A stretch of DNA of 64,000 nt from assembly GCF_934747485.1 (NCBI RefSeq), contig NZ_CAKVGN010000005.1, forward strand, positions 1,636 through 65,635, in the 5' to 3' direction. The translations under genes were made by a program, and so were the position numbers. This DNA comes from an uncultured Brachyspira sp. GTDB lineage: Bacteria > Spirochaetota > Brachyspiria > Brachyspirales > Brachyspiraceae. Below are positions 5,033-57,111 of this stretch, piece after piece. The first letter of the stretch is position 1, and each line of letters opens with the position of its first letter. Below the pieces are notes generated by a model. It was given only the letters and a program-made list of their open reading frames with translations, made no database searches and was not told the origin of the DNA.

Positions 5033-5234
5033 TCAACTTTTTCCCGCCGCAAAAAGTTTTCGCCCTTCGGGCACGCTTTGCGAAAGTGCAAATATTTTAG
5101 TTCTATATTTAGGAATATGTATTAAATAATATCTTTATTTTAGCTAAAAATGCAGTCTTTTTGCTTCTTTGGGTCACCAAAAGAAGTGGGGGTGCCACCC
5201 TACGGGTACGCTTTGCAGGGGGGCTAGTCCCCGC
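5033..5234 (+). mobile_element. Family B element, full length, two M1 modules inserted
   Basis: Left half CAACTTTTTCCCGCCGCAAAAAG..AAAGTGCAA, AT spacer, right half TGCAGTCTTTTTGCTTCTTT..GGGGCTAGTCCCC; extra modules at 5061-5082 and 5195-5216. Confidence 0.8.
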
Positions 5235-17795: not shown

Positions 17796-18232
17796 ATTTA
17801 ATTGTATATTAAAAGACATTCCCCCGCACGTCTAAGAAGTTATAATTAAAGCATAGCATTATCGTGCGGCAAGGTGGTACAGCTCGTACGCGGGAAAAAG
17901 AACAATAAAAAAATTGATAAAATTAATGTATTCTAAATATTTTTTAAGTTCATAATTTTTTTTAAAATTCTATTATATTCGGGGGCTAGCCCCCGTACCC
18001 CCACTTCTTTTGGTGGCCCAAAGAAGCAAAAAGACTGCATTTTTTAGCTCAGATTTAGGTATTACTTTTATTTATTTAATATATACCAAAAATTTTTAAT
18101 TCTTTTATTTATTTGTTATAATTTAATTGTATAAAAGTATTCCCCCGCACGTGTAAGAAGTTATAATTAAAGCATAGCATTACCGTGCGGCAAGGTGGTA
18201 CAGCTCGTACGCGGGAAAAAGTTGAACAAAAA
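17796..18232. repeat. Approx. 110-bp direct repeat (17796-17912 and 18121-18232) flanking an empty family B right half (17980-18050, reverse)
   Basis: Near-identical CCCCCGCACGT.TAAGAAGTTATAATTAAAGCATAGCATTA.CGTGCGGCAAGGTGGTACAGCTCGTACGCGGGAAAAAG in both copies. Confidence 0.9.
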
Positions 18233-41455: not shown

Positions 41456-41475
41456 TAATAATTTTATAAAAAACA

Positions 41476-41850
41476 CCGCACGGTAACCGAATTTTAAAGT
41501 ATAAATTTTATTAACAATTTCAATAAAACAAAAAACTAATATCGGCTAACCGTGCGTCAATAAATATTCTAAACTTAATAAATTTTATTTTTTATCAACT
41601 TTTCCCGTGGCTCGCACCCACAGGCACTTCCTTCGGTCGCTGTGCAGACTTCGCCAAAGTTGCAAAAGCACCTATTAGTTTTTTATAAAATTTATACTTA
41701 TATATAAAAATATTTTATTATGTATATAAAATATAGATATTATTTTATATATTCTAAATATACAAAGCTAAAACACTTGCACTTTTTGGTTCTTTTGACG
41801 AAGTCCGCACAGCGAGCTGCGGGAAAAAGAACAACAAAAAAATTGACAAA
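41476..41850. mobile_element. Family A central anchor pair (41476-41556) plus two inverted family B left halves (41593-41668 and 41778-41850)
   Basis: CCGCACGGT-64-ACCGTGCG; M4 module in both halves, with M2 nested in M4 at 41615-41639. Confidence 0.8.
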
Positions 41851-41910: not shown

Positions 41911-43653
41911 TTAACTTTTATACCAAGAAGGAGGATTACTTTCTATAGGCGAATTTGAAAAAGCATATTTCATATTAACATTTTCTCCTAATTTCCAAGA
42001 TTCTAAATCCTGATTGAAATTAATACAGTTATCAAATAAAAATGATATATATTTAATATTAGACATATTCCATTTATCTAAAGGCTGATTGAAATTTGAA
42101 GCCCATTGAAACATTGAGGTTATAGATTCAGCATTACTCATATTCCAATCATTTAAAGGCTGATTAAAACTTTTTGCATACCTAAACATAGCATCTGCAT
42201 ATTTTAATTTGCTTATATTCCATTTAGAAATATCATGATTAAAAGAATATGCACTTTCAAACATAAAGCTCATAATTTCTACATTACTAACATTCCAATT
42301 ACTTAAATCATTATTAAAAATAATACAATGTGAAAACATAAAATTCATATATTTCACATTAGATACATTCCAATTTTCTATATTATGATTAAAATATACA
42401 GCTCCTTTAAACATATTATGCATATCTTTAACATTTGAAGTATCCCAAGTTTCAATACCGTCAAATTTTTTAACTTTTGAATTTTGAAATAATCCTGACA
42501 TATCAATTATTAAGCTAGTATCTATTTTATCATATTTTACTTTTTCTTTTATTAGTTTTAATAATTCTATTTTATTTTTAGATTTATGTTTTTCACTATT
42601 CCTTAATTCTATTTTTTTAGATTTTTTATATTCTAAAATAATACTCCCTTTATTTTCAATTAGTTCATTTAATTCATCATAATAAGTATTTTCAAGTTTC
42701 TTTATAAAATCTTTAAATTTATTATATTTCAAAACTTCTTTATAAACTTCTTTTATATTGCAGTTTTCAAGCATAGCTAAAAGTTTTTTTCTATTATTTC
42801 CTTTAGATAAAAAATAAATATTTAATATAGATTTAACATTCTTAAAAGAAGAAGCACCAGAAAAAATATCATTGGTAAAGCAAGCCTCATTAATAATCCA
42901 ATTTTCTATAGATTTATTAAAACTTTCAGCACCGCTAAACATATATGACATATAAATTGCACTAAAAACATTCCAGCTTCCAATATCCTGATTAAAACTT
43001 TTTGCATTAAAAAACATATAGTTCATATATAAAACATTAGAAGTATCCCAATTATTTAAAGGCTGATTAAAATTATAAGCATTCTCAAACATACCAATCA
43101 TTTTTTCTGTTTTACTTACATTCCAAGTATTTATATTTTGATTAAAGTTTTTAGCGTTATAAAACATAAAACTCATATCTGTTACATTTGAAGTATCCCA
43201 TTTGTCTAATGGCTGATTAAAAAGTTCACAACCGCAAAACATATATTCCATATTAATGACTTTAGATACATTCCAACCATTCAAAGGCTGATTGAATTTT
43301 TTACAATTATCAAACATTCTAAACATATCCTCAACATTTGAAACATCCCATTTATCTAAAGGCTGATTAAATTTTTTAGCACTCGAAAACATACCTGACA
43401 TATTAGTAACTTTTGAAACATTCCAATTATTTATATTACTATTGAAATTAACAGCATCAAAAAACATATATGACATATTTTCTACATTTGAAACGTCCCA
43501 ACATTCTATGCCTTTAAAATTTTTCCTTGAACTTTCATGAAAAATATTGCTCATATCATTAATTAAACTTGTATCAATATCGCCTAAATATATATTTTCA
43601 TCTTTTACTAATTCTTTTAATTCATCCTTTGTCTGAGGTTTATATTTTTTCAT
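41911..43653 (-). CDS. BspA-like/DUF285 25-aa repeat protein (two repeat blocks)
   Basis: Repeats FNQPL..W.VSNV..M..MF; no signal peptide. Confidence 0.9.
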   Translation of the reverse strand: MKKYKPQTKDELKELVKDENIYLGDIDTSLINDMSNIFHESSRKNFKGIECWDVSNVENMSYMFFDAVNFNSNINNWNVSKVTNMSGMFSSAKKFNQPLDKWDVSNVEDMFRMFDNCKKFNQPLNGWNVSKVINMEYMFCGCELFNQPLDKWDTSNVTDMSFMFYNAKNFNQNINTWNVSKTEKMIGMFENAYNFNQPLNNWDTSNVLYMNYMFFNAKSFNQDIGSWNVFSAIYMSYMFSGAESFNKSIENWIINEACFTNDIFSGASSFKNVKSILNIYFLSKGNNRKKLLAMLENCNIKEVYKEVLKYNKFKDFIKKLENTYYDELNELIENKGSIILEYKKSKKIELRNSEKHKSKNKIELLKLIKEKVKYDKIDTSLIIDMSGLFQNSKVKKFDGIETWDTSNVKDMHNMFKGAVYFNHNIENWNVSNVKYMNFMFSHCIIFNNDLSNWNVSNVEIMSFMFESAYSFNHDISKWNISKLKYADAMFRYAKSFNQPLNDWNMSNAESITSMFQWASNFNQPLDKWNMSNIKYISFLFDNCINFNQDLESWKLGENVNMKYAFSNSPIESNPPSWYKS

Positions 43654-45058
43654 TGTTTAGTCCTTTTTTATATTCCTTTAAAATATTTTCTTTATTTTCA
43701 ATCAATTCCTTTAATTCTTCATAATAAATATTTTCTAATTTCTTTATAAAATCTTTTAATTTATTATATTTCAAAACTTCTTTATACACTTCTTTTATAT
43801 CGCAGTTTTCAAGCATAGAAAGCAATTGTTTTTTATAATTACCTTTAGCAATAAAATAAATTTTCAATATTGATTTTATATCATTATAAGAACTTGAAAA
43901 AATATCTTTAATATAACAAGATTTATTAATAGTCCAATTTTCTATTGACTGATTAAAACTTTCAGCACCGCTAAACATATATGACATACTAATTGCACTA
44001 AAAACATTCCAGTTTCCAATATCTTGATTAAAATTCTTAGCATTAAAAAACATACGGATCATATATAAAACATTAGAAGTATCCCATTTATCAAGCGGTT
44101 GATTAAAATTATAAGCATTTTCAAACATACTATACATTTTAATAACATTACCTACATTCCAAGTATTTATATTTTGATTAAAGTTTTTAGCGTTATAAAA
44201 CATAAATTTCATATTTACTACATTTGAGGTATCCCATTTGTCTAATGGCTGATTAAAACTTTCAGCACCGCAAAACATACTACTCATATTTTTTACGTTT
44301 GAAACATTCCAATTATTGATATCCTGATTAAAGCTTTTAGCTCCCTCAAACATACCAATCATTTTTTCTGTTTTACTTACATTCCAATTATTAAGAGGCT
44401 GATTAAAATTATAAGCCCCTGCAAACATACTCTGCATATTTTCAACATTAGAAGTGTCCCAATTATTTAAAGTTTGATTGAAATTTACAGCTGCAGAAAA
44501 CATACACATCATACTAAGAACATTAGAAGTATTCCATTTGTCCAAAGACTGATTAAAACTTTCAGCTTTAGAAAACATAAACTCCATATCTTTTACATTA
44601 GAAACGTCCCAATTATTTAATGGCTGATTAAAAAGTTTACAACCGCAAAACATACATTTCATATTAATGACTTTAGATACATTCCAATCATTTAAAGGCT
44701 GATTGAATTTTTTACAATTATAAAACATTCTAGACATATCCTCAACATTTGAAACATCCCATTTATCTAAAAGCTGATTAAATTTCTCCGCAAGGCAGAA
44801 CATATTACTCATATTCTTAACTTTGGATACATTCCAATTAGATATATCATGATTAAAGCTTTTAGCACTGAAAAACATAAAACTCATATCTTTAACATTA
44901 GAAGTGTCCCAAGTTTCAATACCGCTGAAATTTCTTAGCATAGAATCTTTAAATAAGCCTGACATATCTGTTATTAGGCTTGTATCTATTTTATTAAATT
45001 TTGTCTTTTTTTCTATCAAATCCATCAATTCATCTTTTGTTTGAGGCTTGTATTTCAT
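43640..45058 (-). CDS. BspA-like/DUF285 25-aa repeat protein
   Basis: Same repeat; shares near-identical blocks and a linker with the downstream paralogue. Confidence 0.9.
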   Translation of the reverse strand: MKYKPQTKDELMDLIEKKTKFNKIDTSLITDMSGLFKDSMLRNFSGIETWDTSNVKDMSFMFFSAKSFNHDISNWNVSKVKNMSNMFCLAEKFNQLLDKWDVSNVEDMSRMFYNCKKFNQPLNDWNVSKVINMKCMFCGCKLFNQPLNNWDVSNVKDMEFMFSKAESFNQSLDKWNTSNVLSMMCMFSAAVNFNQTLNNWDTSNVENMQSMFAGAYNFNQPLNNWNVSKTEKMIGMFEGAKSFNQDINNWNVSNVKNMSSMFCGAESFNQPLDKWDTSNVVNMKFMFYNAKNFNQNINTWNVGNVIKMYSMFENAYNFNQPLDKWDTSNVLYMIRMFFNAKNFNQDIGNWNVFSAISMSYMFSGAESFNQSIENWTINKSCYIKDIFSSSYNDIKSILKIYFIAKGNYKKQLLSMLENCDIKEVYKEVLKYNKLKDFIKKLENIYYEELKELIENKENILKEYKKGLNNEKI

Positions 45059-45207: not shown

Positions 45208-45442
45208 TTTTTGCAACTTTTGCGAAGTCCGCACAGCGAGCTGCGGGAAGAAGAACAATAAAATTTTTTAACATATTCTAATATAAAAAATAATTTATTT
45301 ATATTAAGGTATTTGCAGGGCTTTGCCCTTAACGAAGTACACACCGTGCAGCACCCCAGTTCTTTTGCCGATAGGACCTACTCGGTACGACCGTAGGAAG
45401 TGCCTTCGGTATTGGTATAAAAGAACCAAAAGAACTGCATTT
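45208..45442 (-). mobile_element. Family B left half (M4) and right half (M2+M5 tandem, M4-like insert)
   Basis: CGAAGTCCGCACAGCGAGCTGCGGGAA; GCCGATAGGACCTACTCGGTA-CGACCGTAGGAAGTGCCTTCGGTA. Confidence 0.8.
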
Positions 45443-45507
45443 AATAAAGTATAACTTTTTATGTATATACAAAATATAGATATTATTTTATATATTCAAA
45501 ATTTAAA

Positions 45508-45924
45508 TTACACTCCACACCCTCAAGGCTTTTTATGTTATCTGATGTTTTTGCATAGGTTTTCTTTTTTGCTGTGCGTAGAGTAAAGTTTTAAATTTAA
45601 AAAAATATTGGGCGGGTGCTAAAATTTCTAATTAAACAATAAATATAATTAGAACTCCCATTACAGGAAAAACTGTAAAGAATAAAGGGCGGGGTATGTA
45701 AATAAAGTTTTAAAACTTAAATTACACTTCCCACCCTCAAGTATTTTTGCATTATCTGCTATTTTTTTTATTAATTTTATTTTTTGTTTAATACTCTTAT
45801 TTTTGTGCCCCACCCAAGCGTTTTTTAAATTTAAAATTCACATACCACACGCAAAATAACATTTAAAATAGATAGATTTATAATTTTAATCTTTATTATA
45901 TAGAGAGCTTAGTTAACCGTGCGT
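45508..45924. repeat. Family A element, permuted/tandem copy
   Basis: TTGGGCGGG-69-AGGGCGGG-36-CCCACCCT-71-CCCACCCAAG..CCACACG..ACCGTGCG. Confidence 0.85.
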
Positions 45925-50754: not shown

Positions 50755-51012
50755 TTGTTCTTTTTCTCGTATTACACGGTGTGGACTTCGTAAAAGTTTT
50801 TACCCTTCGGGTACGCTTCGTGAAAAGTGCAAATAATAATACTAGATTATATTAAAAGATATTGATGATAAAATGCAGCCTTTTTGCTTCTTTGTGGCAA
50901 CAAAAGAAGTAGGGGTTCGGGGGCTAGCCCCCGATAACAATAAAAAAATTAATTTTGTAATTTAAGGTTTTATTCAACTTTTTCCCGTAGCAAAAAGTTG
51001 CAAAAAGTACAA
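50755..51012 (+). mobile_element. Family B full element (M4 and M1 in left half, empty right half) plus an empty left half at 50974-51011
   Basis: Provides the empty reference alleles CTTCTTTGTGGCAACAAAAGAAG and CAACTTTTTCCCGTAGCAAAAAGTTGCAAAAAGT. Confidence 0.8.
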
Positions 51013-53245: not shown

Positions 53246-53557
53246 GTGGTGGCTTTGCCCCTGCGAAGCGTGCCCTTAGGATAGCACCCCCACTTTTTTT
53301 GCCGATAGGCACCTACTTGGTGCGACCGAAGGAAGTACCTTCGGTATTGGTATAAAAGAACCTTATATCCTTTGGATACGCTTCGCGAAGAACTGCATTT
53401 TTTAGCTCAGATTTAGGTATTACGTTATATTTAATACATATTCCTTATATATAAAAATATGACATTTATAAAGCTAAAACACTTGCACTTTTCGCAAAGC
53501 GTACCCGGAGGGTAAAAACTTTGACGAAGTCCGTACCGCGTAAGGCGGAAAAGAACT
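53246..53557 (-). mobile_element. Family B full element, reverse, six modules
   Basis: Three M1 (approx. 53262, 53365, 53492), tandem M5+M2 (53302-53346), M4 (approx. 53523). Confidence 0.8.
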
Positions 53558-56604: not shown

Positions 56605-57111
56605 TTGTTGTTCTTTTTCCCGCCGCTCGCACCCATACCTAAAAGTACTTCCTACGGTCGCAGGCACTTCTTTCGGTCGCCCTGAAGGACTCCTTTCAGT
56701 CGCGGTGCAGACTTCGTCAAAAGAACCAAAAAGTGCAAATACTATAGCTTTGTATGTTTTTGAATATGTATAAACTATATTGTAATGCCAACATTTTAAG
56801 CTAAACAATGCAGCCTTTTTGCTTCTTTGCGGCTGCACCACAGGCACTTCCTTCGGTCGCAAAAGAAGTTGGGTGCGGGGCAAAGCCCTGCAAATAATAA
56901 AAATAAAAAAGTTAAAAATTTTCAGTATATTCTGAAATAAGTATATTTTGTTATATTATTTTTTTATTCAACTTTTTCCTGCCTTCGCAGGTACTTCCTT
57001 CAGTCGCCCTGAAGGAGACTCCTTTCAGTCGCACCACAGGCACTTCTTTCAGTCGCTTTGCGGACTTCGTCAAAGTTTTCGCTCTTCGCCCACGCTTCGC
57101 GAAAGTGCAAA
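56605..57111 (+). mobile_element. Family B full element (56605-56893) plus left half (56967-57111), most heavily filled copies
   Basis: M2 nested in M2 nested in M4, M3 modules, 24-nt M2 at 56836-56859. Confidence 0.85.

Follow-up and report, generated by a model that had tools for sequence, protein, structure and literature searches.

The described elements closest to the unit reported here are SDR1-8 of Nostoc punctiforme and its relatives, units of ~21-27 nt that, in the work of Elhai et al. 2008, were reportedly found to be essentially confined to one cyanobacterial group, and for which an RNA intermediate is said to have been proposed. How DNA units of ~24 bases move has been an open question since the Nostoc SDRs were described, and the module that we call M2 bears on it. 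Like the SDRs as they have been reported, M2 is slightly over 20 nt long, inserts precisely at a fixed step, resides in other repeats, nests within its own copies and lacks an identified enzyme; the likeness is one of general features. Unlike the SDRs, M2 is found with the same letters in at least eight other phyla, among the matches listed, and targets REP-like hairpins at the step YG|C. The analogy with the SDRs drawn in a preliminary description of this DNA was apt with respect to size, precision, nesting and the absence of target duplication. M2 is a real unit of a known kind, and the mechanism of that kind is unexplained. The SDR consensus sequences could bear on how novel M2 is; one of these repeats, SDR5, is treated in the passages available from PMC4390886.

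The array that houses M2, here called the scaffold, resembles REP, BIME and REPIN sequences, as they are presented in the passages available from three sources, in being extragenic, in alternating inverted hairpin units and in being enriched between convergent genes (PMC3116915, PMC3733652, PMC2817692). In contrast to REP/RAYT systems, its tag is TGCA-based, the GTAG or CGTC foot is absent, and 34 of 35 genomes of the genus have no RAYT gene. The mobile unit of REP/RAYT systems is the REP doublet, whereas here it is a passenger inside the hairpins. The Ssn GIY-YIG system with its NTS/SRM repeats likewise involves mosaic hairpin clusters that are acted on as single-stranded DNA, and in other taxa M2 enters hairpins of the CGTC type, as found in that system. 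However, Ssn genes are flanked by repeats and the small GIY-YIG gene of Brachyspira is not flanked by them in the source genome, and the portions of the source available present Ssn as a nuclease and do not describe it as an inserter of modules (PMC11893778). IS110-family elements that insert into REPs, such as ISPpu9 (PMC12288879), likewise enter REP hairpins. They are kilobase-sized and have their own recombinase, and no IS110 transposase was found in the source genome. By the tests run, M2 and the scaffold are not members of the REP/RAYT, Ssn or IS110 systems. No Rfam family matched at its gathering score (the highest score was 28.6 bits, where the cut-off is 75), and the passages returned from a comparative study of B. 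pilosicoli genomes do not mention such repeats (PMC3532143). The open literature searched, which left subscription journals and SDR supplements outside its scope, yielded no description of the modules or the scaffold.

The window is the whole 64,000-nt stretch that was analysed, positions 1,636 to 65,635 of the forward strand of contig NZ_CAKVGN010000005.1 from an uncultured Brachyspira sp. (GCF_934747485.1). This source genome comprises 2.92 Mb with 28.1% G+C in an assembly of 134 contigs that is 99.85% complete, and it is a close relative within Brachyspira of named Brachyspira pilosicoli records, whose flanks match it at up to 92-96% in alignments. At the focal site, a left (L) scaffold unit on the plus strand (56610-56738) has T-rich and A-rich hairpin arms, a G+C loop and a conserved tail, with nested modules inside it. 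The 18-nt M4 (56627-56717), which has two mini-hairpins, is split into 56627-56629 and 56703-56717 around a 25-nt M2 that sits at a G|C step within it. This outer M2 is in turn split into 56630-56635 and 56661-56679 around a second M2, a 25-nt variant (56636-56660) sitting in its internal loop, and the 23-nt M2 homologue M3 (56680-56702) is joined to the M2 3' end. The order scaffold, M4, M2, M2, with M3 appended, bears out the nesting proposed in the preliminary description. An A+T-rich spacer (56739-56808) leads from the L unit to a right (R) unit (56809-56891) that carries a 24-nt M2 (56836-56859) letter-identical to copies in other phyla. A second L unit on the same strand (56969-57110) contains M4, a 5'-truncated M2 (56988-57006), an M3 variant (57007-57031), an M2 (57032-57055) and M1 (57078-57101).

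Simpler states of the L unit are found elsewhere in the window. On the plus strand at 41596-41667, M4 (41612-41614 and 41640-41654) contains one 25-nt M2 (41615-41639), and on the minus strand at 41798-41832 M4 stands alone (41798-41815). The plus-strand unit at 5034-5088 has an empty loop (5039-5056) followed by M1 (5059-5082), with an R unit from 5151, and a variant empty unit (50980) lies at 50975-51003 on the plus strand, with further L and R units at 50757 and 50874. All of the module strings previously reported at 5039, 50980, 41797 (reverse), 41615 and 56627-56717 are present at those places. The statement that every intermediate occurs in the window was too broad, with the form in which M4 holds an M2 inside an M2 without M3 being absent there but present elsewhere in the genome (C7:26622). 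Two R units on the minus strand carry further modules: the first (45333-45439) has M2 (45388-45411), M5 and M7, and the second (53251-53397) has M6, M2 (53323-53346), M5 and M1. M5 (21 nt, in both orientations), M6 (~25 nt) and M7 lie at fixed scaffold sites (45333-45387, 53311-53386), and M5 is found both ways round at a single R site.

Across the source genome, L and R units follow one another in head-to-tail alternation (L>R>L>R). The R unit begins with a TGCAG tag, which precedes one hairpin of the unit and a second, G-rich one (136 anchored copies), and its reverse complement resembles L, so that the array consists of alternating inverted units as in BIMEs. The loop is empty in 89 of the 152 L units that have both arms. 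The L arms exist in two compensating versions, which are concordant in 144 of 153 units and discordant in 9. A looser census, which includes some false positives, gave 186 L units, 201 R units and 224 clusters. Scaffold clusters occur preferentially between convergent genes (73 of 208, compared with 126 of 786 gaps) and have no clear orientation bias, and there is no clear strand bias with transcription or GC skew. The scaffold tail motif varies from 0 to 132 copies per genome among 35 genomes of the genus, and M2 counts follow it, with a Spearman coefficient of 0.96 between M2 and scaffold numbers in genomes that, as kin, are not independent. The ends of the scaffold are blurred by A+T-rich edges and by conversion. 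The scaffold is a BIME-like array that is shared at the level of the genus, lies between genes and consists of hairpin units in alternating inverted order. The source genome has another abundant repeat family, unrelated to the scaffold, whose commonest 16-mers have 70-76 copies and of which one copy adjoins C60:18250; an (ATCGC)n tract is also present in the genome.

M2 and M3 belong to a single family, with members of 23-25 nt and a GTCG end; M3 is a homologue of M2 that is located after an M2-type end, which amends the preliminary description. A genome-wide census found 87 matches to the M2 core in the source genome compared with none in five base-shuffled genomes, and a backwards control pattern had no match in any of the 35 Brachyspira genomes, so these counts are not due to chance. 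The genus reaches up to 126 core matches per genome, the highest counts seen in this analysis. The C said to follow the GTCG end is present in 117 of 143 loose M2/M3 matches, with T in 24 and A in 2, a set that includes three chance matches in AT-rich DNA. The family occupies at least eight kinds of site in the source genome: several R loops, the interior of M4, the interiors of two M2 variants, the 3' end of M2/M3 itself and, beyond the scaffold, two other repeat contexts. Among 104 parsed M2/M3 copies, 75 have an exact 12-base empty counterpart of their junction at another place in the genome, and the main empty junctions occur 5-54 times each. Target duplication is absent at these insertion sites. 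Self-nesting is also seen at two further sites (L367, L394), where M2 lies in one case within an M2-like copy in reverse complement and in the other within the terminal loop of a further copy, and head-to-tail arrays of at least three copies occur at L089, L116 and C15:34412 of the source genome. A search for a template of M1-M4 in tRNA genes and outside the repeats of the source genome gave no match with up to four mismatches.

The modules differ in how cleanly they are inserted. Precise insertion with empty alleles holds for M2/M3, M5 and the M1 of right units, which is an exact 23-nt indel, but fails for M4. Where M4 is present, the sequence of the empty loop has lost one or two A's or has other bases in their place, and M4 is therefore not an exact insert; M4 and the M1 of left units substitute for one to four bases. 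In many L units, a ~100-nt element with nested modules of its own takes the place of the loop and of the right arm, as on the minus strand at 17876-17903 and 18197-18224.

We compared orthologous sites in six sister genomes (89-93% identity), which are sister species and not strains of the same species, and in named loci. Some of the named loci may derive from the same assemblies, and the resulting counts are therefore not independent. Of 242 units in these relatives, 233 had a flank match: 38 were shared, 20 were absent in the source genome, 147 were not orthologous as far as the unit and the remaining 28 were ambiguous. A clean indel was found in 10 of the 38 shared units. Clean indels of exact module length include +23 (L314 compared with C10), +48, equal to M2 plus M3 (L298 and C15), +46 and +23, equal to M2 plus M5 and to M1 (L292 and C23), +23 (L278 and C32) and +46, equal to two M3 (L119 and C75). 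At the second L unit of the focal site, one sister genome (G037) is shorter by one M2 length, at 57032-57055, and another (G040) has an empty loop. Exact module-length differences between sister genomes, with the junctions described above, support the precise, nested insertion without target duplication proposed in the preliminary description, and the outcome that the description named as contrary to its proposal was not obtained. That description also called the system active or recent; "active" goes beyond these comparisons, which are between sister species at 89-93% identity.

Most change at orthologous sites is replacement of the whole unit rather than a clean indel. At many sites the flanks and spacers are kept and the interior of the unit is exchanged for another variant, and at some the entire cluster is inverted. 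We infer that the interior swaps between scaffold copies arise by homologous recombination or gene conversion among paralogues, and recombination among copies of the scaffold, not new insertion, has produced much of the diversity seen in the window. A gene pair that reads as fumarate hydratase-like from its protein sequence lies between two scaffold clusters in four relatives (G010, G038, G040 and G042), at the site corresponding to 56890-56970 of the window (L021, L025, L030 and L032). The pair is missing at this site in the source genome and G037, and BLAST found no homologue of its first gene in the source genome. Its absence looks like a deletion between repeat copies, and the scaffold may help to explain gene loss and rearrangement in Brachyspira, with this pair as an example.

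Searching GTDB genomes for the 19-base core of M2 returned at least 115 stretches, of which 80 were fetched, 52 of them from outside Brachyspira. The full 24-mer lies within a host repeat in at least 32 of these 52 loci, among the GTDB matches listed, and M2 is present in unrelated hairpin repeats of at least eight non-cyanobacterial phyla, among the matches listed; the system is thus not specific to spirochaetes. We take the hosts to include REPs of the GTAG and CGTC types in Gammaproteobacteria, Sulfurovum, KSB1, Falkowbacteria and an actinomycete. Other hosts are presumably clostridial repeats, a tandem repeat of Poribacteria and, in two Spirochaetota genomes (L077, L093), what appears to be the domain V end of a group II intron. 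The REP types were assigned partly from the passages available of PMC3733652. Seven of the 52 foreign matches were rejected as chance matches in coding DNA (L045, L047, L048, L056, L078, L106 and L122). Five foreign genomes contain 9, 17, 11, 18 and 9 copies of M2, with none for the control. Exact empty alleles occur next to filled ones in two of these genomes (G047 and G048) and were not found in the fetched loci of the other three (G049, G050 and G051); in G050, which has 18 copies, all copies seen are in one context. M2 is otherwise rare and patchy in distribution, being present in 4 of 266 spirochaetes outside Brachyspira and in none of 250 other genomes from the phylum of G050. The exact 24-mer is absent from IMG/VR, where one variant was found, and plasmid and phage collections held no full copy of M2. 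The single match in a Nostoc plasmid was rejected, since it spans 18 bases and lies within coding DNA. The five foreign genomes yielded no M1, and the spread across phyla therefore holds for M2 only.

With 80 metagenome loci added, we obtained 111 distinct junctions, which resolved into 34 context clusters and, in addition, 15 cases of M2 in tandem or within itself. Among the 34 clusters, position -2 is a pyrimidine in 30, position -1 is G in 23 and position +1 is C in 32, the last figure being inflated because the metagenome pattern required C, and the consensus is YG|C. Fifty-one of 83 metagenome copies are identical to the window copy at 56836-56859, with most letters having been fixed by the search pattern. 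Rebuilt empty sites fold better than shuffled sequences in only 10 of 34 clusters, compared with 3 of 34 controls. Because the same 24 letters occur in unrelated repeats of distant bacteria, M2 is not a part of the Brachyspira scaffold. Many unrelated hairpin repeats contain M2/M3 as a separate entity, which has exact edges and lacks target duplication. The exact edges of M2 in hairpins and in itself, together with the identity of the 24 letters in unrelated repeats of distant bacteria, suggest that M2 is mobile and ranks among the smallest DNA units that move.

The explanation that we favor, with a probability of about 0.6, is that M2 is an SDR-like, ultra-small insertion module that parasitises hairpin repeats, entering them rarely and then spreading by recombination. 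M2 would be non-autonomous and mobile as a folded single strand, and a trans-acting activity that cuts and joins single strands would occasionally insert it into extruded hairpin DNA. Filled alleles would then ride the host repeat and spread by conversion, while tandem units would be gained or lost through slippage between direct repeats. We infer this insertion chemistry. With no dedicated transposase or reverse transcriptase (RT) linked to the module in the genus that has the most copies, the activity would most likely reside in a host DNA-processing protein of wide distribution or in a visitor that is present transiently. Counting against insertion, no enzyme, intermediate or inter-phylum vehicle was found; the prevalence of replacement at orthologous sites, the missing empty alleles in the loci of G049, G050 and G051, the single context in G050, the modest folding of rebuilt empty sites and the inexact fit of M4 and left-unit M1 also weigh against it. 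In a bolder form of this model, which we think unlikely, M2 represents a class of minimal selfish elements for which no enzyme is encoded anywhere, and a conserved host replication or repair protein copies it and joins it into any extruded hairpin at G|C by way of a 24-nt single strand with a GAA-loop mini-hairpin. If this were true, a single sequence would cross phyla as naked DNA and parasitise the repeats of each host. Folding of M2 DNA is weak on either strand (-1.7 to -3.0 kcal/mol). The minus strands of M2, M4 and M1 have mini-hairpins with GNA loops, which are unusually stable in DNA and the CCGAAGG form of which, according to the passages available, belongs to the ssiA priming signal of RSF1010 (PMC13037366). 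Alternatively, the modules could have no mobility of their own and be alleles of a mosaic repeat that spread solely through gene conversion, through slippage and through illegitimate short-patch recombination in which foreign single-stranded DNA takes part. The dominance of swaps and inversions at orthologous sites fits such a process, as do the discordant arms of 9 of 153 L units, truncated forms of M2 that are consistent with deletion between direct repeats, the small replacements made by M4 and M1, and the failure to find an enzyme. However, it leaves unexplained the same 24-mer edges in 34 unrelated contexts, the YG|C rule and the letter identity across phyla, and we consider it improbable.

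The preferred reading of M2 as a rarely inserted module leaves the inserting activity to be assigned, and the default candidate is a RAYT or IS200-type Y1 HUH transposase, or an Ssn-type GIY-YIG enzyme, of which M2 would be a passenger and which Brachyspira would have lost or would meet occasionally. The foreign hosts of M2 include REPs of the GTAG and CGTC types, Y1 genes occur in four of the five foreign genomes, HUH chemistry is compatible with the absence of target duplication, and Ssn, in the passages available, cuts single-stranded DNA beside CGTC hairpins (PMC11893778). Against this proposal, the source genome has no Y1_Tnp match and the genus has one in 35 genomes, in a genome that lacks M2; G050 has none with its 18 copies of M2. 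None of 12 fetched Y1 genes has an M2 core adjacent to it, two have the host-REP motif adjacent, and no RAYT gene flanked by the scaffold repeat was found in the genus. The RAYT analogy of the preliminary description therefore fails for Brachyspira, and the presence of the top M2 counts in a genus almost without Y1 transposases argues against RAYT as the default explanation. The small GIY-YIG gene is a housekeeping gene that is present in all 35 genomes, as a single copy across the genus, and sits in an operon, with no scaffold unit within 13 kb in the source genome and repeat units on both sides in 2 of 20 loci fetched. We judge a passenger relationship to either enzyme type to be likewise improbable. 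Neither IS110 nor TnpB was found in the source genome, a search for Y2_Tnp gave no match even in control genomes and so shows nothing, and one of five integrase matches lies near a scaffold unit. BLAST and inspection by eye of 384 genes neighboring the scaffold found no HUH-like or multicopy mobile gene, and the ORFs beside foreign M2 matches shared no family among the 80 of 107 considered. Thus, M2 has no linked dedicated enzyme in the genus richest in its copies, and the RAYT/IS200-IS605, IS110 or RT genes flanked by modules that had been anticipated were searched for with none linked. The remaining alternative is RNA-templated insertion, in which the plus-strand hairpin would be transcribed and rewritten by an RT or by a polymerase with RT activity. 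The variable positions of M2 fall in the internal and terminal loops of the plus-strand hairpin, and stem changes mostly retain a G.T pair on that strand, preserving pairs of the G.U type (2-22 in 8 copies, 7-17 in 13). The loop variants TTC and TAC are also compatible with a UNCG tetraloop, and copies of M2 in the intron-like end (L077, L093) would suit an RNA route. However, RT genes are present in 9 of 35 genomes of the genus without relation to M2 load (4 of 15 rich in M2, 5 of 20 poor in it), the RT of the source genome is of the retron Ec67 type with no scaffold adjacent, orientation has no bias with respect to transcription (63 compared with 48), and the loops of M4 and M1 match a minus-strand DNA GNA triloop and not UNCG; we consider this route the most doubtful of all. 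That retron Ec67-family RT/endonuclease (L180) is on a 2.4-kb contig (C124) with repeat at its ends. The mechanism by which M2 is inserted is directly testable, with its defined ends, target rule, filled and empty alleles and hosts that include culturable ones.

A Pfam scan covered 16 of the 57 window ORFs. Two tandem DUF285-like paralogues (41911-45058) adjoin scaffold clusters, and four of the five close DUF285-like paralogues in the source genome are scaffold-adjacent. The intergenic stretches at 41470-41560 and 45500-45900 contain other repeat families, which have G-rich tracts and long inverted ends and which likewise vary between sister genomes.
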